Source of the DNA: Escherichia coli
GTDB lineage: Bacteria > Pseudomonadota > Gammaproteobacteria > Enterobacterales > Enterobacteriaceae
DNA: 64,000 nt
Reading direction: 5' to 3' (one strand)
Assembly (NCBI RefSeq): GCF_044647545.1
Contig: NZ_CP172818.1
Shown here: one piece after another, positions 1 to 58,612 of the stretch
Position numbering within the stretch: position 1 is the first letter of the stretch
How the letters are laid out: every line of letters begins with the position of its first letter
Made by a program: the position numbers and the translations under genes
The notes under the pieces: model-generated
Told to the model about the DNA's origin: nothing
The model's input: the letters and a program-made list of their open reading frames with translations, nothing else
Database searches by the model: none

Positions 1-346
1 TAAAGATGACCCCGATTTCTCTATTTCTCTCGGCGCAGACGGTATTGAACGCAAACTGGAAATTGAAAAAGCGGTTACTGACGTTGCGGAATTGAACGGT
101 GAATTACGTAATCGTCAGTATCTTGTTGAGCAGCTAACAAAAGCAAATATCAACGATGTGAATTTTACGCCGTTTAAATATCAGTTAAGCCCGTCATTGC
201 CAGTGAAAAAAGACGGTCCGGGTAAGGCGATTATTGTGATCCTTTCTGCGATGATCGGCGGGATGGTGGCTTGTGGTGGCGTGCTGTTGCGCCATGCGAT
301 GGCATCCAGAAAACAGGATGCCGTGATGGAAGAGCACTTAGTTTAA
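1..346 (+). CDS. fepE: FepE (Wzz-like polysaccharide co-polymerase family), 3' portion only; 5' end lies upstream of the window
   Basis: Frame open from window edge (codons from pos 2) to TAA at 344-346; C-terminal hydrophobic helix AIIVILSAMIGGMVACGGVLL; sits divergent to fepC as in the E. coli fep locus. Confidence 0.8.
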   Translation, partial: KDDPDFSISLGADGIERKLEIEKAVTDVAELNGELRNRQYLVEQLTKANINDVNFTPFKYQLSPSLPVKKDGPGKAIIVILSAMIGGMVACGGVLLRHAMASRKQDAVMEEHLV

Positions 347-3160: not shown

Positions 3161-3185
3161 GATAATGAAATTAATTATCGTTATC
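3161..3185. promoter_or_regulatory. Fur-box-like sequence in the divergent fepD / entS promoter region
   Basis: gataatgaaattaattatcgttatc resembles the GATAATGATAATCATTATC iron-box consensus; placed between divergent iron-uptake genes. Confidence 0.6.
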
Positions 3186-3258: not shown

Positions 3259-4509
3259 ATGAATAAACAATCCTGGCTGCTTAACCTCAGCCTGTTGAAA
3301 ACGCACCCGGCGTTTCGCGCAGTATTCCTCGCTCGTTTTATCTCAATTGTGTCTCTGGGTTTGCTCGGCGTCGCGGTGCCGGTGCAGATCCAGATGATGA
3401 CGCATTCTACCTGGCAGGTGGGGCTTTCGGTGACGCTGACCGGCGGCGCGATGTTTGTTGGCCTGATGGTCGGCGGTGTGCTGGCGGATCGCTATGAGCG
3501 TAAAAAAGTGATTTTGCTGGCGCGCGGCACCTGTGGCATTGGCTTCATTGGACTGTGCCTGAACGCGCTGCTGCCGGAGCCGTCATTGCTGGCAATCTAT
3601 TTACTTGGTTTATGGGATGGTTTTTTCGCATCACTTGGCGTTACGGCGCTACTGGCGGCGACACCTGCACTGGTAGGGCGTGAAAACCTAATGCAGGCCG
3701 GGGCGATCACCATGTTGACTGTGCGTCTGGGATCGGTGATTTCGCCCATGATTGGCGGTTTACTGCTGGCGACCGGAGGCGTAGCCTGGAACTACGGGCT
3801 GGCGGCGGCGGGCACGTTTATTACCTTGCTACCGTTGTTAAGCCTTCCGGCGTTGCCACCACCGCCGCAGCCGCGTGAGCATCCGTTGAAATCATTACTG
3901 GCAGGATTTCGTTTTCTACTCGCCAGCCCGCTGGTGGGAGGGATTGCGTTGCTGGGTGGTTTATTGACGATGGCGAGCGCGGTGCGGGTCCTGTATCCGG
4001 CGCTGGCTGACAACTGGCAGATGTCGGCGGCACAGATTGGTTTTCTCTATGCGGCGATTCCGCTCGGCGCGGCTATTGGCGCGTTAACCAGCGGGAAGCT
4101 GGCACATAGTGCGCGACCAGGGTTATTGATGCTGCTCTCCACGCTGGGATCGTTCCTTGCCATTGGTCTGTTTGGCCTGATGCCGATGTGGATTTTAGGC
4201 GTGGTTTGCCTGGCGCTGTTCGGTTGGTTGAGCGCGGTTAGTTCGTTGCTGCAATATACAATGCTGCAAACGCAAACCCCGGAAGCGATGTTAGGGCGGA
4301 TTAACGGTTTGTGGACGGCGCAAAACGTGACGGGCGATGCCATAGGCGCAGCGCTGCTGGGCGGTTTGGGCGCGATGATGACACCGGTTGCTTCCGCAAG
4401 CGCGAGCGGTTTTGGTTTGTTGATTATCGGCGTGTTGTTATTGCTGGTGCTGGTGGAGTTGCGACGTTTTCGCCAGACGCCGCCGCAGATGACAGCGTCC
4501 GACAGTTAA
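3259..4509 (+). CDS. entS: Enterobactin exporter, MFS transporter
   Basis: 416 aa, about 12 hydrophobic segments; divergent from fepD with an iron-box-like sequence between them. Confidence 0.93.
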
Positions 4510-4512
4510 TGC

Positions 4513-5469
4513 TTAAAACAGCGCCTTAAGTCGTTCCAGCACTTGCATGGCGCTGTAGTAATCCAGGCGGAACGTCTCGGTTCCCAGCGCATAAACCTGC
4601 TTGTTTTGTACTGCAGGCAGGTGCGCGAGCAGTGGATTGGCATAAATCGCATCGGCATCTTTCTGATCACCAGCGAACAGGAATAGTGAATCGCCATTTA
4701 ACCCTGCAGCCAGATTTTCTCCACCAAGCTGAATGATGTCATGGCGTTTGCCCTGGCTTTGGCTGGCGTTTAACCCTGCGGGCAATTTCGCCAACGTAAA
4801 GCCGAGTTGTTCCAGCATCTGCCCTTGTGCTGATTCCGGCGTCCAGAGATTGGCACTGTGTGCAGCGGCGGTATAGACAATGGCAGTGACCGGCTGCGGC
4901 GGTAATTTGATTTGCTCTTTCGCCGCCGCCAGTTGCTTATCAAACTGTGCAATCCGCTCTGCCGCTTGTTTCTCATGCCCGGTAATTTCGCCAAGCTGCG
5001 TTAACAGCGACTGCCAGCTTTTGTCGTCGTAATTGATGATTAATGTTGGGGCGATGGTAGAAAGCTGATCGTACAGCGCCAGCGCCGAATCGCCGCCGGT
5101 TGCGCTAATTAAAATCAGATCCGGCATTTGCGCGGCAACGGCTTCGGCGCTCGGTTCGCCGATATAGATCCGTTGCAGTTTGCGTTCTTTCGCCACCTTG
5201 CTCCACTGGCGTAAAAAGCCCTGGTCATCCGCGACGCGGTTATTTGGCGTGGTCGCGCCGCTGGCGATCACCGGAGCATCAATCGCCAGCAGTGAGCCGG
5301 TCAGGGTGACGCTGGTGGAAACTATACGCTGCGGCTGGCTTTCCAGGGTATGAGTGCCCCGGCTGTCAGTAATCTGACGCGGCCAGTCGGCGGCCTGAAC
5401 TGCGACTATTCCTGAAAGCAAAAGTCCTGTTAATAGAAGGGCGTTGCGGTAGAGCGGGGCGAGTCTCAC
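4513..5469 (-). CDS. fepB: Ferric enterobactin periplasmic binding protein
   Basis: 318 aa; N-terminal signal peptide [26 protein letters not shown]; convergent with entS (3-bp gap). Confidence 0.93.
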
Positions 5470-5610
5470 AAATTAGCTTCCTGTTATTAATAGAGTTAAT
5501 GCTTCTCATTTTCATTGTAACCACAAACAGATGCAACCCCGAGTTGCAGATTGCGTTACCTCAAGAGTTGACATAGTGCGCGTTTGCTTTTAGGTTAGCG
5601 ACCGAAAATA

Positions 5611-5631
5611 TAAATGATAATCATTATTAAA
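5611..5631. promoter_or_regulatory. Fur box in the divergent fepB / entC promoter region
   Basis: taaatgataatcattattaaa is a near-consensus iron box; a second AT-rich half-match (ttattaatagagttaatg) lies near 5485-5505. Confidence 0.7.
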
Positions 5632-12778: not shown

Positions 12779-12870
12779 AGTGAGGGGGGATGTTGGCGAA
12801 TGTTGGCATGGTGCCGAGGGTTCCCCCTCACCCTAACCCTCTCTCCTGTGGGGCGAGGGGACTGACCGAG
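12779..12870. repeat. GC-rich imperfect palindromic intergenic repeat element between cstA and ybdD
   Basis: tgagggggga (12781-12790) pairs with ttccccctca (12821-12830), followed by ccctaaccctctctcctgtggggcgagggga; resembles E. coli intergenic palindromic repeat families, family not assigned. Confidence 0.5.
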
Positions 12871-12915
12871 CGCGTTGATAGCACCCTCTCAGCAACCTGT
12901 TTACCGGAGGTTTAG

Positions 12916-13113
12916 ATGTTTGATTCACTGGCAAAAGCCGGAAAATATTTAGGTCAGGCGGCGAAACTGATGATTGGTATGCCTGATTACGACAACTATG
13001 TCGAACATATGCGGGTTAACCATCCCGATCAAACGCCGATGACCTACGAAGAGTTTTTCCGTGAGCGGCAGGACGCGCGCTACGGTGGAAAAGGCGGCGC
13101 GCGCTGCTGCTAA
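12916..13113 (+). CDS. ybdD: Small protein co-located with cstA (DUF466 family)
   Basis: 65 aa; SD-like ggagg 7 nt upstream of ATG; conserved partner downstream of cstA-type transporters. Confidence 0.85.
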
Positions 13114-13122
13114 ATCTGTACG

Positions 13123-14211
13123 TCAGGCTTTAAACGATTCCACTTTTTCGAACGCTGCACGCAACGTATCCGGTGTCAGCGTGACCGGCAGGTAATGAAT
13201 GGATTCCACCGGACGTAAGGTGTGGGCAATCACTTTGTCGATCTCCGCCTGATTATTGATATCCACTTCCAGCTCCGCCAGCGTAGTCGGCAGATGAAAA
13301 CGCTGATACGCTCCAGTTAATTGCGCCAGCACATCATCCTGACCCAGCAAGGCGCTTTGCACCAGAATTCCGTAGGCGACTTTGGTGCCGTGGAGAAACT
13401 TCTCGGTTTGCGGCAGCACGGTCAGACCGTTATGCACGGCATGAGCTGCCGCCACACGCGTAAAACGATCGCCCAGACCACCAACCATCCCACCACCAGC
13501 AATAATGGCATCCACCACATCGCAAAATGATTGCGTTAACTGGTGATTTTGCTGATCGCTCAGCGCCTGTTCGCTACTGTTTAACAAGACGTCGCGAATG
13601 GCCTGCGCATTATTGATCCCCAGTCGCACGGTTAGCGGCAACGTTTCTGGTTGCGGGGCCAGCACCACCGCTTCATACCATTTCGCCAGCGTGTCACCGA
13701 TCCCCGCCAGCAGATATTGTTGCGGCGCGTTGAGGATAATCTCCGGTTCCACCAGCACCATAAAATTGGCGTCGTCGAAAATCTCATAATGCAGCGCCTG
13801 TCCGGCATCGTTATACCAGACAGAGAGCGGTGTCCAGGCGGCGCAGGTAGCGGCGATCGTCGGAACGGCAACAAATGGCAGACCGAGACGGCGGGCGAGG
13901 GCTTTCGCGGTGTCGAGCAGTGCGCCGCCGCCGACGCCAATCACCACGTTGCGATCGTCAGCGGATTCAGCCGCCAGTTGCTGTACATCGCTTTCGCTGC
14001 AATGACCACGAAACAAAATATGCTTTGCCCCTGGCAGTTCAAACGCTGGCGGCAGTTTGGTTTGCGCCGCAGCAATGGCGCGTTCGCCGTAGATCCACAC
14101 CGCGCGAGAAAGCTGTTCATCAGTGAAAAAATCGTGCAGGTGATTGAAACTTCCTGGATGTGAAAAGTAGTTAGCCGGGCCGACGACCACGCGGATAGGA
14201 TTGTGAGGCAT
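13123..14211 (-). CDS. ybdH: Iron-containing alcohol/glycerol dehydrogenase family oxidoreductase
   Basis: 362 aa; dinucleotide-binding motif GVGGGALLDTAKA. Confidence 0.9.
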   Translation of the reverse strand: MPHNPIRVVVGPANYFSHPGSFNHLHDFFTDEQLSRAVWIYGERAIAAAQTKLPPAFELPGAKHILFRGHCSESDVQQLAAESADDRNVVIGVGGGALLDTAKALARRLGLPFVAVPTIAATCAAWTPLSVWYNDAGQALHYEIFDDANFMVLVEPEIILNAPQQYLLAGIGDTLAKWYEAVVLAPQPETLPLTVRLGINNAQAIRDVLLNSSEQALSDQQNHQLTQSFCDVVDAIIAGGGMVGGLGDRFTRVAAAHAVHNGLTVLPQTEKFLHGTKVAYGILVQSALLGQDDVLAQLTGAYQRFHLPTTLAELEVDINNQAEIDKVIAHTLRPVESIHYLPVTLTPDTLRAAFEKVESFKA

Positions 14212-14319
14212 GTTGTGTTGTCCTTATTGTTTTATTTAGACATCTAAACGTCTTGATTGCCAAATACTAGCATCGTGTTATAGTGCCTTCAACACGCAAC
14301 TTCATCAGGCACAATAAAA

Positions 14320-15480
14320 ATGACAAATAACCCTCTGATTCCACAAAGCAAACTTCCACAACTTGGCACCACTATTTTCACCCAGATGAGTGCACTGGCG
14401 CAGCAACACCAGGCGATTAACCTGTCGCAAGGCTTTCCTGATTTTGATGGTCCGCGCTATTTGCAGGAACGGCTGGCGTACCACGTTGCCCAGGGGGCAA
14501 ACCAATACGCACCCATGACCGGCGTGCAAGCATTACGCGAGGCGATTGCTCAGAAAACGGAACGGCTGTATGGCTATCAACCAGATGCCGACAGCGATAT
14601 CACCGTAACAGCAGGGGCGACGGAAGCGCTATACGCAGCGATTACTGCATTGGTTCGCAATGGCGATGAAGTGATTTGCTTTGATCCCAGCTATGACAGT
14701 TACGCGCCCGCCATCGCGCTTTCTGGGGGAATAGTGAAGCGTATGGCACTGCAACCACCGCATTTTCGCGTGGACTGGCAGGAATTTGCCGCATTGTTAA
14801 GCGAGCGCACCCGACTGGTGATCCTCAACACCCCGCATAACCCCAGTGCAACTGTCTGGCAGCAGACTGATTTCGCCGCTCTGTGGCAGGCGATTGCCGG
14901 GCACGAGATTTTTGTCATTAGCGATGAAGTTTACGAGCACATCAACTTTTCACAACAGGGCCATGCCAGCGTACTGGCGCATCCGCAGCTGCGTGAGCGG
15001 GCGGTGGCGGTGTCATCGTTTGGCAAGACCTATCATATGACCGGCTGGAAAGTGGGTTATTGCGTTGCGCCAGCGCCCATCAGTGCCGAAATTCGCAAGG
15101 TACACCAGTATCTGACCTTTTCGGTGAATACCCCGGCACAGCTGGCACTTGCGGATATGCTACGTGCAGAACCTGAGCATTATCTTGCGTTACCGGACTT
15201 TTATCGCCAGAAGCGCGATATTCTGGTGAATGCCTTAAATGAAAGTCGGCTGGAGATTTTACCGTGCGAAGGTACATACTTTTTGATGGTGGATTACAGC
15301 GCCGTATCTACGCTGGATGATGTTGAGTTTTGCCAGTGGCTGACGCGGGAGCACGGCGTAGCGGCGATTCCGCTGTCGGTGTTTTGCGCCGATCCCTTCC
15401 CACATAAACTGATTCGTCTCTGTTTTGCCAAGAAGGAATCGACGTTGCTGGCAGCAGCAGAACGCCTGCGCCAGCTTTAG
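14320..15480 (+). CDS. ybdL: PLP-dependent aminotransferase (class I; methionine aminotransferase)
   Basis: 386 aa; PLP-lysine motif SSFGKTY. Confidence 0.92.
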   Translation: MTNNPLIPQSKLPQLGTTIFTQMSALAQQHQAINLSQGFPDFDGPRYLQERLAYHVAQGANQYAPMTGVQALREAIAQKTERLYGYQPDADSDITVTAGATEALYAAITALVRNGDEVICFDPSYDSYAPAIALSGGIVKRMALQPPHFRVDWQEFAALLSERTRLVILNTPHNPSATVWQQTDFAALWQAIAGHEIFVISDEVYEHINFSQQGHASVLAHPQLRERAVAVSSFGKTYHMTGWKVGYCVAPAPISAEIRKVHQYLTFSVNTPAQLALADMLRAEPEHYLALPDFYRQKRDILVNALNESRLEILPCEGTYFLMVDYSAVSTLDDVEFCQWLTREHGVAAIPLSVFCADPFPHKLIRLCFAKKESTLLAAAERLRQL

Positions 15481-16110
15481 TTATTTAACCGTCCAGGCGC
15501 GGGAAAATTGACGGTCGGCAAACAACTCTTGCAGGCCGTTAATTTGCTTCAGGCGCAACACTTCGTCGCTGTCCATTCCCAGCTCTTTGCCAATTTTATT
15601 ATCGTCCCATCCCAACTGGCTGAGTTCTCGGACGATTTCTGACATGGCAGTGATTTGGTGACGTCCACGAGCGCGATTATGACGAATAGTTGCGGCGATG
15701 CGTTGATTACGCGTACCTTCCAGACAGGTCACCGGCAAATAACCTTTTAAGCGTAATTTTAACGATGATGAGCCTTTACCAATTTCATGGCGGTGAAAAC
15801 CATCCACGATTTCCAGGGCATTTTTATCCGTATGCGTGACCACAATGGGTTGGGTAAAACCATCTATTTCAATGGATTTTTTCAGCAGTTTTTTTTCGGG
15901 TGGTGCCACGTTGTTTGGGTTGTAATCATTAGGCATAAGTTGGCTGTTTTTAACCCACAGAACGCAATCCACTGGCTCTTCACGAAAGGGGCTAACCTGA
16001 TGGATCGCCATGCGGATTTCATTAATCGCTTTGATGCGATCATCTTCCGGCAAGCTGGCGAGAAATTGGGTTAAATCCTGCGTTAATCGTTGTTGCATAG
16101 TATCCCCCAT
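15481..16110 (-). CDS. ybdM: ParB/sulfiredoxin-like domain protein
   Basis: 209 aa; ParB/Srx signature IVDGFHRHE; 28-bp overlap with upstream ybdN; stop abuts ybdL stop. Confidence 0.88.
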   Translation of the reverse strand: MGDTMQQRLTQDLTQFLASLPEDDRIKAINEIRMAIHQVSPFREEPVDCVLWVKNSQLMPNDYNPNNVAPPEKKLLKKSIEIDGFTQPIVVTHTDKNALEIVDGFHRHEIGKGSSSLKLRLKGYLPVTCLEGTRNQRIAATIRHNRARGRHQITAMSEIVRELSQLGWDDNKIGKELGMDSDEVLRLKQINGLQELFADRQFSRAWTVK

Positions 16111-17303
16111 TCCTGACGTTTTCCTTTTATCCGTTCGTTATAACGCTGATAGTTCTTCGCTTTCGTAGGACTAAATGATAATGCCCGGCACCAGTAATCG
16201 TTATTGAGTAAAACTTTGCATATTCGCCGCCAGGAGGGGATATCTTTCGCGCCAATGTCCCCTTGCTGGGTTTGTGGAACTTCGATGCCTTTTTTCTGAT
16301 ACCAGTGCAAATAAATGGCGATTTTATTGCGGTAATGCTCAGCTGTTTTTTCCGGCATGCTATTGAGCAGCAATAATGCATATTCTTGCCAGTCTAAATG
16401 TTCTGGCTTGAGGATTTTCCGATGACCATAAAAATGATTATCATGTCCGGCGTAAATGCCGCCACTTTTTACCCCGCTGACTCGTGCGCACATAGCAGCC
16501 CAGCGATCCGGTTCGATAACGTGATAGAGCCATAATCCTTGCCGTTGCTCCGGGCCAAAAGGTTCGCAAATTCGCATATGACGCAGAGGAACGCCTGCCT
16601 GATACATTATATTATACAGTGGGTTACAGAGCTGTTGATGGTTAGCATACCAGGTCCAGATATCAGCCACTTTCCAGTCGTAGATGGGGTAAATGTACCA
16701 ACTATGACCGCCTGGTGCGGCGGTGGTCCAGGGCTTATCATCGGCAAAACGTTGTTTATTTAAACTGGCGATGGCGACAAAACGGTTGTAGGACTCATCT
16801 GCACGGATGCCGATCATCATCGCCGCCGGACGTTTTTGTGAAAACCATTCAGCAAACTCACGCACAAATTGTTCGAAGGTCATGCCAGGCTGGTAAAAGG
16901 AGAAAAAGTCAGGATCGGTTATCGCATCTTGCGGGGGCTGACGCACCCATTCGACATCAGGTTCCCAGCACTGCCATTCGGGTTGGTATTGAGAAAGGGA
17001 ATTTTGCGTCGTAAGCGGGAGCGCAACCCAGTAAAACTCTTCGATGACATCGGCGTAAAACTCACGTAATGACTGAACATAGTTAATAGTGCATGAGAAC
17101 TGCGCTTCCCAGTCGATAAACAAAACGCAGATTTTTTTGCCCATTTGTCGGGCAATTTCGGCGGTCAGATGCAGCATTAATCCGGAATCTTTACCACCCG
17201 AAAAAGAAACGCAGACACGGGGTAGGGTATTAAGTGTCCAGGTAATACGTTCTTTTGCAGCTTCCAGAATATTCAGTGGAAGCGGGATTTTATAAATAGA
17301 CAT
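16083..17303 (-). CDS. ybdN: PAPS-reductase-like PP-loop ATP pyrophosphatase family protein
   Basis: 406 aa; PP-loop motif SFSGGKDS near N-terminus. Confidence 0.88.
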   Translation of the reverse strand: MSIYKIPLPLNILEAAKERITWTLNTLPRVCVSFSGGKDSGLMLHLTAEIARQMGKKICVLFIDWEAQFSCTINYVQSLREFYADVIEEFYWVALPLTTQNSLSQYQPEWQCWEPDVEWVRQPPQDAITDPDFFSFYQPGMTFEQFVREFAEWFSQKRPAAMMIGIRADESYNRFVAIASLNKQRFADDKPWTTAAPGGHSWYIYPIYDWKVADIWTWYANHQQLCNPLYNIMYQAGVPLRHMRICEPFGPEQRQGLWLYHVIEPDRWAAMCARVSGVKSGGIYAGHDNHFYGHRKILKPEHLDWQEYALLLLNSMPEKTAEHYRNKIAIYLHWYQKKGIEVPQTQQGDIGAKDIPSWRRICKVLLNNDYWCRALSFSPTKAKNYQRYNERIKGKRQEWGILCNND

Positions 17304-17449
17304 CTAAAAACGCTCTCTGAACGTTACGGGGTGACTCGTGAGATGAATCCGCTAATTATAGGATAAACGAAGCAAGATAGAGCACATTATTTTATATTCA
17401 CATAATGAATTAATTGATGCGTAATATATTATTTGCCAGTGGTAATGAA

Positions 17450-18352
17450 TCAGAAGCTATCATTTAAACGATCTATGAATCGGGAGAAGACAAGGTTGTT
17501 CAACGAAGCCTTGTTATAGGAAATATAAAGTTTAACCGCAGGAAGAGGTTGTTCCAGTTTTATTTCTTTTAACTTCAAAAAGTCACGATGTAAATTGTAC
17601 AGTTCGGTGGGCACAATGCCTAATAAGTCAGTAACAGAAATACTATTAATTATAGTCATCAAAGAAGAACTGCGAAATGAAACTTTACGGTTCATAAAAC
17701 GTTCATCTATGTCCATTTGAATTTCGTCAATCCCTGCTGATTTAGATATCAACAGGGTGAATTCTTCGGCGATAATTTGTTCATAGTTACTGGTATCGGT
17801 AATACGAGGATGTTTGTTGCTACATATAAGAGAATTGCGAATAGTATGTAACGGCATGCAGATGACAGAGCGGCTAATTACTGGTTGTAGTGTAATTGCC
17901 AGGTCAGTTTTGCGTTGAACCAACAGTTCTTCGGCATTTTCAGCTGAAAGCAGTATGTCATGGCATTCTATATCGATTGAAGTATCTTGTCTAAGACAGC
18001 GGATTAGCATGTTGTTATTAGTACAAGAAATAAGCTGAGGACCGTAGATAATAAAATTTTTCTTTAGCTCAGACTTATTAACAATATTGATCGTTTGTTC
18101 AATGCCTCTGAGATTTTTCTCAAGATGATGATGCAGATTTAACCCTGTCGTAGTCGGCGCGATACCTTTCCCTGAACGAATGAATAACGGGTCATTAAAT
18201 TGCGCACGTAAACGTTGTAACGACTGACTAACAGCAGAGGGCGTTATATATAATGATTCTGCCGCTTTACTAATGCTGAGATGTTGATAAATACATTCAA
18301 ATATGACCAGTAAATTGAGGTCAAATTTTTTTAGATCATAAAGATTCGCCAT
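17450..18352 (-). CDS. ybdO: LysR-family transcriptional regulator
   Basis: 300 aa from ATG at 18352 (alternative upstream ATG at 18388); N-terminal HTH; markedly AT-rich coding sequence. Confidence 0.85.
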   Translation of the reverse strand: MANLYDLKKFDLNLLVIFECIYQHLSISKAAESLYITPSAVSQSLQRLRAQFNDPLFIRSGKGIAPTTTGLNLHHHLEKNLRGIEQTINIVNKSELKKNFIIYGPQLISCTNNNMLIRCLRQDTSIDIECHDILLSAENAEELLVQRKTDLAITLQPVISRSVICMPLHTIRNSLICSNKHPRITDTSNYEQIIAEEFTLLISKSAGIDEIQMDIDERFMNRKVSFRSSSLMTIINSISVTDLLGIVPTELYNLHRDFLKLKEIKLEQPLPAVKLYISYNKASLNNLVFSRFIDRLNDSF

Positions 18353-19303: not shown

Positions 19304-19589
19304 TAATTTGTCCTTTTCAGTCAGTGCAAAAGTCGAGTAAAAGGCATAACCTATCACTGTCATAGGTAAGAGCTTAGATCAGGTGATTGCCCTTTGTTTA
19401 TGAGGGTGTTGTAATCCATGTCGTTGTTGCATTTGTAAGGGCAACACCTCAGCCTGCAGGCAGGCGCTGAAGATACCAAAGGGTAGTTCAGATTACACGG
19501 TCACCTGGAAAGGGGGCCATTTTACTTTTTATCGCCGCTGGCGGTGCAAAGTTCACAAAGTTGTCTTACGAAGGTTGTAAGGTAAAACT

Positions 19590-23167: not shown

Positions 23168-23221
23168 TTTTACTCCATGTCGTCGGTACTGCGAGTGTCG
23201 CAGATAAACATACCCAAAAGA

Positions 23222-23259
23222 AAACCCTCACCGTCAGGCGGCGAGGGTTTAACTCACAT
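23222..23259 (-). terminator. Intrinsic terminator downstream of rna (minus strand)
   Basis: aaccctc / gagggtt stem; minus-strand transcript continues with ttcttttggg. Confidence 0.5.
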
Positions 23260-23396
23260 GATGATACTGACTGTTGCTCACTCTTTGAAGTGATTTGCGT
23301 CACATTCAGGGAATTCCTCAATGTAGCGCATTATGTATAAATCTTAATCGTCATGGTTTATGGAAGACGAATTAGCGTGTTTTGTAAATCAGAGGA

Positions 23397-35756: not shown

Positions 35757-36317
35757 ATGAACGTGAGTAAATATGTCGCTATATTTTTCTTTGTTTTTAT
35801 TCAGTTAATCAGTGTTGGTAAAGTTTTTGCTAACGCTGATGAGTGGATGACAACGTTTAGAGAAAATATTGCACAAACCTGGCAACAGCCAGAACATTAT
35901 GATTTATATATTCCTGCCATCACCTGGCATGCGCGTTTTGCCTATGACAAAGAAAAAACCGATCGCTATAACGAGCGACCGTGGGGCGGCGGTTTTGGTC
36001 AGTCGCGTTGGGATGAAAAAGGAAACTGGCATGGCCTGTATGCCATGGCATTTAAGGACTCGTGGAACAAATGGGAACCGATTGCCGGATACGGATGGGA
36101 AAGTACCTGGCGACCGCTGGCGGATGAAAATTTTCATTTAGGCCTGGGATTTACCGCTGGCGTAACGGCGCGCGATAACTGGAATTACATCCCTCTTCCG
36201 GTTCTACTGCCATTGGCCTCTGTGGGGTATGGCCCCGCGACGTTTCAGATGACCTACATTCCGGGTACCTACAACAATGGCAATGTGTACTTTGCCTGGA
36301 TGCGCTTTCAGTTTTGA
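35757..36317 (+). CDS. pagP: Lipid A palmitoyltransferase (outer-membrane beta-barrel)
   Basis: 186 aa; signal peptide [25 protein letters not shown]. Confidence 0.93.
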
Positions 36318-36491
36318 GACAAATGAAGTTTTAGTAAATTCTTTAAAATCAACCACTAAAATAATTAACATCAAAAATAACGCGACTTTTATCACTTTTT
36401 AGTAAAGTTGCACTGGACAAAGCGTACCACAATTGGTGTACTGGTAACCGACACAGCATTTGTGTCTATTTTTCATGTAAAGGTAATTTTG

Positions 36492-36701
36492 ATGTCTAAG
36501 ATTAAAGGTAACGTTAAGTGGTTTAATGAGTCCAAAGGATTCGGTTTCATTACTCCGGAAGACGGCAGCAAAGACGTGTTCGTACACTTCTCTGCAATCC
36601 AGACTAATGGTTTTAAAACTCTTGCTGAAGGTCAGCGCGTAGAGTTCGAAATCACTAACGGTGCCAAAGGCCCTTCTGCTGCAAACGTAATCGCTCTGTA
36701 A
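36492..36701 (+). CDS. cspE: Cold-shock-domain protein
   Basis: 69 aa from ATG at 36492; RNP1 motif KGFGFI; ORF-track start 36408 is an extension. Confidence 0.95.
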
Positions 36702-36718
36702 GATACGTCAGCAAGAAT

Positions 36719-36750
36719 TCAAAACCCGCTTAATCAGCGGGTTTTTTTTG
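36719..36750. terminator. Bidirectional intrinsic terminator between convergent cspE and crcB
   Basis: aaaacccgct taat cagcgggtttttttt: A-tract, GC stem, T-tract. Confidence 0.8.
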
Positions 36751-55916: not shown

Positions 55917-56624
55917 ATGGACATGGAGTCGCAAAAAATATTGTTTGCACTTTCCACTCCGATGGAAATACGCAATGAATGCTGTTTACCTTCGCATTCA
56001 TCCCCCAAAATGTATTTAGGTACACGCTTTTTTGACCTTTCTTCCTCCTGGGGAATTGATGACCGTGATGACCTGCTGCGCACAATTCACCGAATGATCG
56101 ATAACGGTCATGCCGCTCGGTTGGCAGGGCTTTATCACCGCTGGTTTCGTTATTCTCCGTGTGAATGGCGTGACTATCTTGCTGAACTAAATGAGCAAGG
56201 TCAGGCTTATGCGCAATTTGTCGCCAGCACCGCCGAATGCTGTGGCGAAGGGGGAATCAAAGCCTGGGATTATGTCCGGATGGGTTTTTTAAGCCGAATG
56301 GGCGTACTTAATAACTGGTTGAGTGAAGAAGAAAGCCTGTGGATCCAGTCGCGCATTCATCTACGGGCTCTACGTTATTATAGTAACTGGCAGCAATACT
56401 TTGCCGGTTATACCTTTGGTCGGCAATATTGGCAGTCTCCCGAGGATGATGATCTGCCTTTATTACGTGAATTCTTAGCGCGTAAAGAATACGACGATTC
56501 CGGCAATGATATGTTTTATCAATTATTTGCCAGTGACGATGCATATTACGCGACCTTACCCTGGCAACCACTGGCTGACTACCCCACATGCCCGGAAACG
56601 CTTAAGGATATGAGCGACCTATGA
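55917..56624 (+). CDS. ybeR: DUF1266-family protein, paralog of YbeU
   Basis: 235 aa from ATG at 55917; stop overlaps djlB start (ATGA). Confidence 0.88.
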
Positions 56625-58048
56625 AAAATTGCTGGAAGATTCTCGAAATAGAGGAAACGACTGACGTCGATATTATCCGCCGCGCTTATCTGGCGCTGTT
56701 ACCGTCCTTTCATCCAGAAACCGATCCGCAGGGTTTTAAACAACTTCGTCAGGCGTATGAGGACGCGCTACGGATTGCGCAGTCGCCTGCTAAATCTGTT
56801 TGGCAACCAGAAGAACATGAAGTTGCAGAACATGAAATTCTGCTCGCCTTTCGTGCGTTACTCGCCTCTGATAGCGAACGTTTTCTGCCCTCTGCCTGGC
56901 AGCGATTCATTCAGCAATTAAATTATTGCTCGATGGAAGATATTGATGAATTACGCTGGTCGCTGTGCACAATAGCCATGAACACTGCCCATTTATCCTT
57001 CGAGTGCGTGGTGTTATTAGCAGAAAGATTGCGGTGGTTGCAGGAGGAAAACGTCGGGGAAATAGACGAAGAAGAACTGGAATCCTTTTTATATGCCATT
57101 GCGAAGGGGAATGTTTTTAACTTCCAGACCATTCTGCATCTGCCCGTTGCCGTACAAAATGACACCATTGATTTTTACCAAATGTTCGCTCGGATTTGGT
57201 CATCGCATCCAGAATGGCTGACATTGTATTTAGCGCAACATCGCGCAGTGATTATCCCCGATGATGCAAATTTGCACAGAAATTTACTCCGCTGGTATAG
57301 CACAAGCCGTCTGGATATCCCCGAACTTCTGGATTACGCCCGGTCGTGGCGGGAAGCTGAACCTGATAATGAAGATGCGCGTTATTATGAATACGCGCAA
57401 CGCGTCTATTGTGGAGAAGGCGAAAGCCTGCTGGCAGAACTTTGTGACTACTGGCGCGAGTATCCCTCCACCCAGGCGGATGCTTTAATGTTGCAATGGT
57501 GCCGTCAGCATCGGGTCGATTATTACCCGTTAGTGGTGATGATGATTGAAGCGCGTGATCTGGTTAACGATCAGGGAAAACCGCTACTTTATGTCCCTGG
57601 TGACAGCGCTCGTACGCGTTTTCATTTATACGAAATACTCAGTGATGAAAAACTCTCTGCGCTGGGGCGTTCTCTGGTCGAGATGGTTTTGCACAAAGGA
57701 CGTAAGCCGCGGATCTCACTCACGCGTGATACAGAACATACCTTATGGTCATTATATCTAGTTGCCAAACAATTAGTGCAGGCCAGCCAACCGACAGAAG
57801 AATCATTAATGCCGATTGTGAGCCGCCTTGATGCAGAAGATCGTTGTCCTCTGGAAGCATTAATTATTCGACGGTTATTAATTCAGGCGGCGAATTTTAC
57901 CGAGAAGCAAACCGTCGAACCGGAGCCGCAACCGCAGTCGATGCCCGTTGACGATGGTGGGCCGGGCTGTCTGGGCGTCATCAAAATTATTTTCTACATT
58001 TTTATCTTTGCCGGTTTAATAGGGAAAATACTCCATCTGTTCGGGTGA
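56621..58048 (+). CDS. djlB: J-domain-like protein with C-terminal membrane anchor, paralog of DjlC
   Basis: 475 aa; N-terminal J-like helix pair with HPE where HPD is expected (HPETDP); C-terminal hydrophobic tail [20 protein letters not shown]. Confidence 0.9.
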
Positions 58049-58057
58049 CAGTCGACG

Positions 58058-58612
58058 TTAATGTGCGGGAAGCCCGGCAAGTAATCTTTCCGCGTTTTTG
58101 TAATGTTGTTTGGCGGCCAGTTTTAACCATTTTTGAGATTCATAATGGTTAACATTAATACCTGAGCCATTTCTGTAGATCAAACCCAAAGTATATTGAG
58201 CATGAGCATACCCTTGTTCAGCTGCTTCCTTATACCAGAGAATTGCTTTACGGGTATCGGGTTTGACCCCCAGACCTTTGAGGTAGATCCACCCCAGTTT
58301 ACTTTGCGCGCGTGGATTTTCCTGTTCCGCTGATTGCTCATACCAGTATCTCGCCTGTGTATAATCCAGTGGTTTACCGTCGCTACCATGAAGATAAAAT
58401 TCTCCAAGGCGATATTGCGACGTTGAGTGACCATGAATCGCGGAAAGCTCCGTGGCTGCCGTGGTGAATGGAAGACTGCCCGGTGAGCTTAAATAATCAA
58501 AGGCATAATTCGCCATGGCTTTATCACGCAACGTCGTTTTCTTGGGTTGGCTAATACAGGTTATTGCTGCAACTATAAATATTGCGAATGTATACATTAA
58601 TTTTTTATTCAT
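58058..58612 (-). CDS. ybeT: Sel1-repeat protein with N-terminal signal/anchor sequence
   Basis: 184 aa; hydrophobic N-terminus [21 protein letters not shown] then Sel1-type repeats. Confidence 0.88.

Follow-up and report, generated by a model that had tools for sequence, protein, structure and literature searches.

The convergent gene pairs ybdL/ybdM, entS/fepB and ybdD/hcxA of Escherichia coli, all located in the window (the whole 64,000-nucleotide stretch of DNA analysed here), are very probably ordinary, tightly packed convergent gene ends with read-through into the facing gene. The arrangement is most likely a tolerated genome compaction, not a dedicated regulatory device. We propose that RNA polymerase, for lack of an intergenic terminator, would continue beyond the stop codon and transcribe the facing gene in antisense, and that the read-through RNA would be untranslated after ribosome release. 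Some tens to a few hundred nucleotides further on, either Rho or modest hairpin-plus-U signals embedded in the coding sequence would end this RNA, and the complementary 3' ends could pair, after which RNase III would cut them.

In all three cases, the ORFs and the annotation show two neighbouring genes that converge tail to tail from opposite strands (Table 1). In the ORF list and in the sequence itself, the stops of ybdL and ybdM abut (TAG immediately followed by TTA; gap 0), those of entS and fepB are separated by 3 bp (TAA tgc TTA) and those of ybdD and hcxA by 9 bp. The gaps reported in the initial annotation, i.e., 0 (15480/15481), 3 (4509/4513) and 9 bp (13113/13123), are thus exact. They were cross-checked against the RefSeq annotation of a strain that is 100% identical over window positions 12800-16300, and against K-12 MG1655; gene ends and gaps were identical in both. 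Two other junctions that the initial annotation had overlooked are similarly tight, namely fepE/fepC, the only pair sharing coding bases tail to tail (the three main pairs abut or nearly so, without overlap), and djlB/ybeT.

Table 1. Convergent gene ends, read-through RNAs and candidate signals, in window coordinates.
Feature	Position	Strand	Details
fepE (+)/fepC (-) stop codon overlap	343-346		TTAA, 4 bp
Fur-box-like site	3161-3185		entS divergent promoter region
entS CDS	3259-4509	+	Enterobactin exporter; stop TAA 4507-4509
fepB CDS	4513-5469	-	Ferric-enterobactin binding protein; stop from TTA 4513-4515
GC-rich palindrome	4519-4555		Arms CAGCGCC/GGCGCUG; within the final 14 fepB codons
Fur-box-like sites	5495-5513 and 5610-5628		fepB side
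hcxA read-through RNA (inferred for the window strain)	12891-13122	-	Antisense to the entire ybdD
ybdD CDS	12916-13113	+	YbdD/YjiX family, 65 aa; closes the cstA-ybdD unit
cstA-ybdD read-through RNA	13114-13570	+	Antisense to the hcxA 3' end; stops in a Rho termination region
hcxA (= ybdH) CDS	13123-14211	-	Stop from TCA 13123-13125
ybdL CDS	14320-15480	+	Methionine-oxo-acid transaminase; stop TAG 15478-15480 (ORF list, sequence, RefSeq)
Hairpin in the final ybdL codons	15447-15475	+	Followed by UUUAGUUAUUUAA, across both stops; weak embedded-terminator candidate
ybdM CDS	15481-16110	-	IbrB-like/ParB-like nuclease domain protein; stop TAA, from TTA 15481-15483
Candidate intrinsic terminator of ybdL	15505-15553	+	Antisense within the final ~22 ybdM codons
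djlB (56621-58048, +)/ybeT (58058-58612, -) gap	58049-58057		9 bp

Such junctions are common in E. coli. Five of the 11 convergent CDS pairs of the window are at most 9 bp apart (fepE/fepC overlap included), as compared with 11/47 pairs (23%; at most 9 bp apart or overlapping) across six 50-kb samples taken at even intervals from K-12, so that tight pairs are not clearly in excess over chance (Fisher P = 0.14). Four tight junctions follow one another in the first 16 kb of the window (P = 0.003 per position), and about two such runs are expected among the approximately 704 convergent pairs of E. coli. With these two results, a non-random clustering of tight junctions in the window was rejected. 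A zero-gap convergent junction is therefore no anomaly, as about one in four E. coli convergent pairs is alike, and regulation does not follow from it alone.

The overlap of the 3' ends as antisense RNA, also claimed in the initial annotation, agrees with published RNA-seq data and is already documented. The entS-fepB, ybdL-ybdM and ybdD-hcxA pairs are all listed as convergent excludons of E. coli MG1655 in Table 1 of the ExcludonFinder study (Sanmartin et al., NAR 2025, PMC12288877), i.e., with transcripts overlapping at their 3' ends in at least 50% of 58 RNA-seq samples. In our K-12 sample, 9/11 tight pairs are listed vs 2/36 wider pairs. The call is nearly automatic at gaps below 10 bp, and the listing is therefore weak evidence for long overlaps. 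The equally tight fepE/fepC and djlB/ybeT pairs are missing from the same table. Convergent operons of E. coli generally overlap at their 3' ends, at any spacing (276 of 370 pairs, 75%; mean overlap 286 nt; Conway et al., mBio 2014, PMC4161252), and the tight gap is therefore not the cause. Concerning individual 3' ends, the Term-seq and Rho tables of Adams et al. (eLife 2021, PMC7815308) have no entries near 6344-6349xx (ybdL/ybdM) or 6232-6237xx (entS/fepB), and searches of the SMRT-Cappable-seq and TERMITe supplements gave no match for the 3' ends of these two pairs.

The ybdD/hcxA transcripts overlap by 522 nt in the map of Conway et al., as reproduced in Table S1d of PMC7373196, and a p19-captured RNase III dsRNA cluster crosses the junction (cluster 45 of the same table). 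On the plus strand, a bicyclomycin-sensitive Rho region is located some 457 nt into antisense hcxA, at K-12 position 632836 (Rho score 8.36, P = 1.3e-17; PMC7815308, Supplementary file 2), which corresponds to window position 13570. The stretch 13413-13513, upstream of this end, is C-rich and G-poor (C/G = 1.95). On the minus strand, the entry for cluster 45, quoting Conway et al., ends the K-12 hcxA unit at U00096.2 position 631380, which we aligned to window position ~12891; the K-12 REP55 element is missing from the window strain, for which this end is predicted from K-12. Folds across the ybdD/hcxA junction were weaker than those of shuffled sequences.

The ybdD read-through end, antisense to ybdH, resembles the Rho/NusG antisense suppression described by Adams et al. 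(PMC7815308), where antisense Rho regions form the largest class (51.5%) and where Peters et al. 2012 is cited on this suppression. In contrast, the read-through of ybdL, ybdM, entS, fepB, fepE and fepC lies outside the demonstrated set. Published end and composition together point to Rho-dependent termination only for the ybdD read-through into hcxA. Judging from the composition of the seven other read-through RNAs, which is Rho-favourable (C-rich, G-poor) for fepB, fepC, hcxA and ybdM and Rho-unfavourable for ybdL and entS, Rho may also operate on the fepB, fepC, hcxA and ybdM sides.

The initial annotation had stated that no junction leaves room for a terminator. This statement stands for the gaps only. 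An intergenic bidirectional intrinsic terminator is absent, the gaps of 0, 3 and 9 bp being too short and the consensus terminator scan having called none at the junctions (25 were found overall vs 24.6 expected, i.e., chance). Likewise, no known Rfam RNA family occurs at any junction, and no REP/PU palindrome occurs between the stops in the window or in any Escherichia locus. The three pairs share inefficient termination and complementary 3' ends with the convergent operons of Conway et al. (PMC4161252), such as the classical dnaQ-rnh and ilvA-ilvY; however, most of those operons possess a leaky intergenic terminator, whereas here any terminator must be in the coding sequence, as there is no intergenic space. 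Candidate terminator-like hairpins do occur inside the coding ends, at 15447-15475, 15505-15545 and 4519-4555, so that certain transcripts may have only a short overlap.

These candidates raise the possibility, which we regard as the most serious alternative though still an unlikely one, that efficient intrinsic termination occurs in the coding sequence (ybdL, 15505-15553 or 15447-15483; fepB, 4519-4510), with overlaps of only 0-75 nt and negligible antisense effects. The candidate for ybdL at 15505-15553 combines an A-tract with a 12+4 bp stem (AAAUUGACGGUC.GCAA...UUGC.GGCCGUUAAUUU) and with a U-rich tail (UUUGCUUC), and its hairpin is positioned 25-65 nt beyond the ybdL stop. This hairpin (15505-15545) has a minimum free energy of -20.1 kcal/mol (z = -3.6), which none of 200 shuffles equalled; it is stable in 17/21 taxa, is more stable on the plus than on the minus strand in 16/21, and ranks 9/1138 windows by mean free energy. 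Against it, the RNAalifold rank is 118/1156, covariation is limited to a single pair (U-A to C-G) with marginal shuffle support (18/500), and the conservation cannot be separated from ybdM protein coding and codon bias. We regard this conserved hairpin, a new observation, as an unproven candidate for the ybdL terminator. The strand-asymmetric conserved hairpin just beyond the ybdL stop also hints, against tolerated compaction, at a selected element.

The two other hairpins lie at the very ends of ybdL and fepB, with U-rich tails across the stop codons. The ybdL one (15447-15475; dG -15.9, z = -2.25) is confined to Escherichia and one Pseudocitrobacter, not being conserved in Citrobacter or Salmonella. 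The fepB one (4519-4555; dG -13.1) is followed by UUUUAAGCAUUAAC on the minus strand (z = -1.6), making it terminator-like for fepB, and forms a hairpin without a U-tract on the plus strand (z = -2.5); outside Escherichia, where E. albertii has a weakened form, it occurs only in C. koseri, and it may be an embedded fepB terminator. We rejected both as conserved terminators, given their restriction mainly to Escherichia, their weakening in E. albertii and the absence of covariation; they remain weak candidates. Hairpin-plus-T-tail sites at most 10 nt from the eight stop codons number 2 vs 0.25 expected (P ~0.03, post hoc), and TransTermHP overlapping terminators were reported at 146/165 convergent excludons (PMC12288877). 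These two counts favour embedded termination, but the U-richness is partly owed to the stop codons and a terminal Lys codon, our terminator scan called none of the candidates, neither ybdD/hcxA nor fepE/fepC has anything comparable, and ybdD ends in a Rho-dependent manner hundreds of nucleotides downstream (PMC7815308). Moreover, translating ribosomes would disrupt hairpins located in the last codons of their own gene. A palindrome over the ybdL/ybdM junction (15463-15499, minus strand) was dismissed as chance (z = -1.0), its arms corresponding to Arg-Leu and Ala-Trp codons.

We compared these junctions with those of relatives. Of the 20 other enterobacterial loci carrying both genes, 17 retain the ybdL/ybdM zero gap, across at least five genera; its conservation across Escherichia, Salmonella, Citrobacter and relatives, as seen in these sequence comparisons, is new. 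Against tolerated compaction, these 17/20 loci could mean constraint instead of drift. Most Citrobacter and Salmonella orthologues of the entS/fepB and ybdD/hcxA junctions carry REP-like palindromes in 35-191 bp spacers; the REP-bearing cases comprise most of those in Citrobacter and several in Salmonella and Pseudocitrobacter. The tight entS/fepB and ybdD/hcxA gaps are thus largely Escherichia-specific, which is also new, and the tight state is one of several tolerated states since the junctions of relatives carry such spacers. The GC palindromes of relatives are similar to REP elements (preprint 10.64898/2026.03.23.713779), and the 4519-4555 palindrome and 15505-15545 hairpin are reminiscent of bidirectional or embedded hairpins; bidirectional terminators between convergent genes are covered in a Liu-lab preprint summarising Ju et al. 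2019 (10.1101/2022.10.23.513370). In contrast to junctions with such elements, the Escherichia gaps of 0, 3 and 9 bp contain no hairpin, and the candidates are embedded in coding sequence and strand-asymmetric.

From the ybdL/ybdM conservation and the 15505-15553 candidate, a selected, dual-use abutment can be envisaged, which we consider rather improbable: the last ~22 ybdM codons would also encode a strand-specific ybdL terminator, and the interlocking of the two coding ends with this terminator would keep the zero gap across genera. In a stronger version, if true, the ybdL read-through would tune the expression of the low-GC ybdM-ybdN genes. Three loci harbouring ybdL without ybdM (L035, L039 and L054) were discarded as a source for the ancestral ybdL terminator, as ybdL exceeds the end of each locus.

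Also improbable is the proposal that the overlaps were selected as regulatory excludons, whereby transcribing one gene would repress the other, either because polymerases collide or because RNase III cleaves the duplex. It would lead to exclusive or tuned expression of ybdL vs ybdMN, entS vs fepB, and cstA-ybdD vs hcxA. It is consistent with the cross-genus conservation of the ybdL/ybdM zero gap, the dsRNA cluster at ybdD/hcxA (PMC7373196), the cataloguing of the three pairs, the description of entS/fepB as a functionally linked pair, and the higher synteny and lower single-cell co-expression of excludon pairs in general (PMC12288877). This reduced co-expression would favour regulation over tolerated compaction; however, the catalogue provides no overlap length, mechanism or antagonism specific to the three pairs, and our literature search found no antagonism data for any of them. 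Several lines of evidence argue against selected repression. First, entS and fepB are both induced in iron starvation, when both are needed. Because both sit behind Fur-box-like sites, they are probably induced together and not in mutual exclusion, which would be counterproductive. Second, the tightness of entS/fepB and ybdD/hcxA is not conserved, REP spacers occupying these junctions in most Citrobacter and Salmonella. Third, tight pairs make up 23% of convergent pairs, and 75% of convergent operons overlap regardless. Fourth, p19 caught very few convergent 3'-end dsRNAs genome-wide.

Finally, the idea that one gene of a pair is unreal or mis-ended, and the zero gap spurious, is effectively refuted, since the stop codons are unambiguous, for all eight proteins tblastn shows conserved orthologues in many genera that share the same C-termini, and the RefSeq and curated K-12 annotations are concordant, even if ybdD and ybdM are little characterised and the GC content of ybdM and ybdN is low.

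Overlap of convergent 3' ends is documented genome-wide in E. coli, and the three pairs, being already catalogued, mainly serve for calibration. Our small addition is the contrast between ybdL/ybdM, frozen at zero gap over several genera, and entS/fepB and ybdD/hcxA, which bear REPs in most Citrobacter and Salmonella. This contrast offers a natural experiment on whether REPs and embedded hairpins substitute for each other as 3'-end signals. As a minor observation, the IS1 and IS5 insertions present in two near-identical strains, considered as possibly targeted to the junction, both lie inside ybdN.

The window covers the enterobactin/cstA/ybd region of E. coli; its segment 12800-16300 was found in 5,420 of 5,426 complete E. 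coli genomes, several sequenced strains being 100% identical. The initial annotation had described three convergent pairs, ybdL/ybdM, entS/fepB and ybdD/hcxA (hcxA is also named ybdH), with stop codons 0, 3 and 9 bp apart. Its coordinates are exact by the ORF list and the raw sequence, where the ybdL/ybdM junction reads CTT TAG directly followed by TTA TTT, and the gene ends are identical in the RefSeq annotation of an identical strain and of K-12 MG1655. Two further tight pairs had been left out: fepE/fepC, tighter than any of the three, and djlB/ybeT, the fifth tight junction in the window. The annotation strain (NZ_CP033850.1) shows an 80-bp offset arising somewhere within window 29800-58058.

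Coordinates of gene pairs, Fur-box-like sites and candidate hairpins
Feature	Coordinates	Strand	Remarks
fepE (+)/fepC (-) shared stop bases	343-346		convergent; TTAA, 4 bp; sequence
Fur-box-like site, entS	3161-3185
entS	3259-4509	+	ORF list, raw sequence
fepB	4513-5469	-	ORF list, raw sequence; entS/fepB gap 3
Candidate (b)	4555-4519	-	last 14 fepB codons; dG -13 to -15
Fur-box-like sites, fepB	5495-5513 and 5610-5628
ybdD	12916-13113	+	ORF list, raw sequence
hcxA/ybdH	13123-14211	-	ORF list, raw sequence; ybdD/hcxA gap 9
ybdL	14320-15480	+	ORF list, raw sequence
Candidate (a)	15447-15475	+	last ybdL codons; dG -15.9, z = -2.25
ybdM	15481-16110	-	ORF list, raw sequence; gap 0
Candidate (c)	15505-15545	+	dG -20.1, z = -3.6, as stable in 0/200 shuffles
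djlB	56621-58048	+
ybeT	58058-58612	-	convergent with djlB, gap 9 bp

The tight junctions are real but ordinary. The 11 convergent CDS pairs of the window have gaps of -4, 3, 9, 0, 120, 40, 53, 100, 69, 9 and 59 bp. As the baseline we took six 50-kb segments from the K-12 annotation, spaced evenly, in which 11 of 47 convergent CDS pairs (23%) overlap or are at most 9 bp apart, including yadE/panD (3 bp), zapC/ycbX, yccX/tusE and tatD/rfaH (-4 each), ypdC/fryA (2) and bioP/metR (-113). The comparison of the window with this baseline (5/11 vs 11/47) gives a Fisher P of 0.14. Four tight junctions in a row have a probability of 0.003 per position, so that about two such runs are expected genome-wide over the ~704 convergent pairs of E. 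coli.

The antisense overlap of 3' ends that the initial annotation had proposed is supported for all three pairs, which figure among the 165 convergent excludons (adjacent opposite-strand genes with overlapping transcripts) of MG1655, a call that requires the RNA-seq-defined transcripts to overlap in 50% or more of 58 samples (ExcludonFinder, NAR 2025, PMC12288877). The text of that paper mentions entS/fepB by name, and its table holds neither fepE/fepC nor djlB/ybeT. The table includes 9 of the 11 tight pairs of the K-12 sample vs 2 of the 36 wider ones; with a gap below 10 bp and both genes expressed, an excludon call is close to automatic. More generally, Conway et al. (mBio 2014) reported 3'-end overlap in 276 of 370 convergent operons, with a mean of 286 nt. 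Both the general phenomenon and the three pairs have been published before, and the interpretation is supported without being anything special. Our additions are modest: the base rate, the cross-genus zero gap of ybdL/ybdM, the contrast between junctions with and without REP at entS/fepB and ybdD/hcxA, and one candidate coding-embedded terminator.

We regard tolerated compaction as very probably the best explanation of the tight junctions. Polymerase would pass each stop codon onto the antisense strand of the neighbouring gene, the untranslated read-through RNA would be ended by Rho (as shown for ybdD) or, as we infer for ybdL and fepB, by modest embedded hairpins, and the complementary 3' ends could become RNase III substrates (as shown for ybdD/hcxA). 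At the latter junction, p19 dsRNA cluster 45 (U00096.2 631317-631915) extends across ybdD and the 3' end of ybdH and falls in the class of 3' (convergent) overlaps (mBio 2020, PMC7373196, Table S1d). As quoted in this table, the cluster is tied to a Conway minus-strand unit (promoter 632745, terminator 631380), with an overlap length of 522 that further backs the antisense overlap, and to the antisense start U00096.2 631808 (+) of Thomason et al. This start site corresponds to window 13319 (+), inside hcxA, and part of the hcxA-antisense RNA may initiate internally and not by ybdD read-through.

A Rho termination region antisense to ybdH was reported at NC_000913.3 632836 (+) (Rho score 8.36, P = 1.3e-17; Adams et al., eLife 2021, PMC7815308, Supp. 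file 2). It maps to window 13570, 457 nt beyond the ybdD stop and a short way downstream of a C-rich, G-poor stretch (13413-13513; C/G = 1.95, >95th percentile of the window). Folds at ybdD/hcxA are weaker than those of shuffles, which fits the Rho-dependent ends reported for ybdD. The composition of the downstream RNA also favours Rho loading for fepB (C/G 1.3-1.6 over 600 nt), fepC (1.95), hcxA (2.62 at +300-400) and ybdM (1.71 at +100-200), and does not favour it for ybdL and entS. K-12 has a 38-bp REP element (REP55) in the cstA-ybdD spacer, absent from the window strain (between 12880 and 12881), so that the hcxA 3' end may vary between strains; the K-12 hcxA read-through transcript reportedly stops ~11 nt short of REP55.

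Efficient terminators embedded at one or two transcript ends, at least one of them functional, would make the overlap negligible; we hold this to be possible but rather unlikely, and it is compatible with tolerated compaction. The earlier claim that no room is left for a terminator stands at the junctions themselves, where a consensus scan found none (window total at chance, 25 vs 24.6) and an Rfam search no match, but it does not extend to coding sequence. There, a hairpin-plus-T-tail scan with folding against shuffles yielded three candidates. Candidate (a) is followed by UUUAGUUAUUUAA, covering both stop codons of ybdL/ybdM, and candidate (b) by UUUUAAGCAUUAAC. Candidate (c), 25-65 nt beyond the ybdL stop and antisense within the last ~22 ybdM codons, is flanked by an A-tract before and UUUGCUUC after (whole element 15505-15553 (+)). 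Neither fepE/fepC nor ybdD/hcxA has a comparable hairpin. In the published 3'-end and Rho datasets that we searched, neither a 3' end nor a Rho region mapped to ybdL/ybdM or entS/fepB, as expected if these genes are poorly expressed in the media used.

The window has 1.47 hairpins with T-tails per kb and strand; at the eight stop codons, two lie no more than 10 nt away vs ~0.25 expected (P ~0.03, post hoc), the U-richness there being partly due to the stop codons themselves. Candidates (a) and (b) are mainly confined to Escherichia and weakened in E. albertii. In 17 of 21 taxa candidate (c) folds stably (-13.5 to -20.8 kcal/mol); G-U pairs make it more stable on the + than on the - strand in 16 of 21, and by mean MFE in a 3-kb multi-species alignment it comes 9th among 1138 windows. 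One of its base pairs covaries (U-A in 7 taxa, C-G in 8, U-G in 3). It ranks just 118th of 1156 by RNAalifold and has marginal shuffle support (18/500), and its conservation is inseparable from ybdM protein coding. It is better supported than (a) and (b), as a putative ybdL terminator that is a candidate and not a finding.

That the pairs are regulatory excludons appears improbable. This reading sits badly with entS/fepB, both genes lying behind Fur-box-like sites. The fepDGC-entS and fepB-entCEBA promoters are Fur-controlled, so that entS and fepB are probably co-induced.

An annotation artefact is effectively excluded by the comparison of orthologues, placed by tblastn and each lengthened to its stop codon, across 46 loci from one HcxA scan of species-representative genomes. 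The ybdL/ybdM gap is 0 in 17 of the 20 loci with both genes, including four Escherichia lineages, Salmonella enterica subsp. arizonae and diarizonae, most Citrobacter, Superficieibacter and Pseudocitrobacter. Three Citrobacter have 7-13 bp here, and the identity of the stop codons varies (TAG/TAA/TGA adjoining TTA/CTA). The entS/fepB gap is 3 bp in Escherichia and Superficieibacter only, 0 in C. amalonaticus and 43-105 bp elsewhere. The ybdD/hcxA stop codons are separated by 8-9 bp in Escherichia, by 11 bp in one Citrobacter, by 35-191 bp in the remaining Citrobacter and Salmonella loci, and by still more, with other genes in between, in other taxa. REP-like palindromes (gccggataaggcg...gccgcatccggc) with folding energies of -20 to -50 kcal/mol on either strand are present in most of the longer spacers. 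Judged from these sequences, ybdL/ybdM is an old, stable abutment, and the tightness of the two other pairs belongs mainly to Escherichia, most Citrobacter and Salmonella loci having REP-like spacers.

The GC content is 46.5% in ybdM, 46.6% in ybdN and 36.7% in citR (15481-18352) vs 53.9% in ybdL and a window mean of 51.0%. This low-GC stretch adjoining ybdL could be horizontally acquired DNA; despite it, the ybdL/ybdM abutment is conserved in several genera. In two clinical strains (loci L056 and L057), otherwise 100% identical to window 12800-16300, IS1 and IS5 lie inside ybdN (~16200-16300 equivalent), which suggests that ybdN is dispensable. Three contigs of 272-465 bp at ~0.75x coverage (L051, L053 and L055), in Terrisporobacter, Alkalicoccobacillus and Streptomyces assemblies, match E. 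coli hcxA/ybdD at 96-98% identity and probably represent E. coli contamination. Far from the junctions, Rfam gathering-level matches comprise a cspA-type thermoregulator upstream of cspE (36301-36749 (+)), the rnk leader (23213-23321 (-)) and the sRNA STnc70 in the dsbG-ahpC spacer (19437-19530 (+)).
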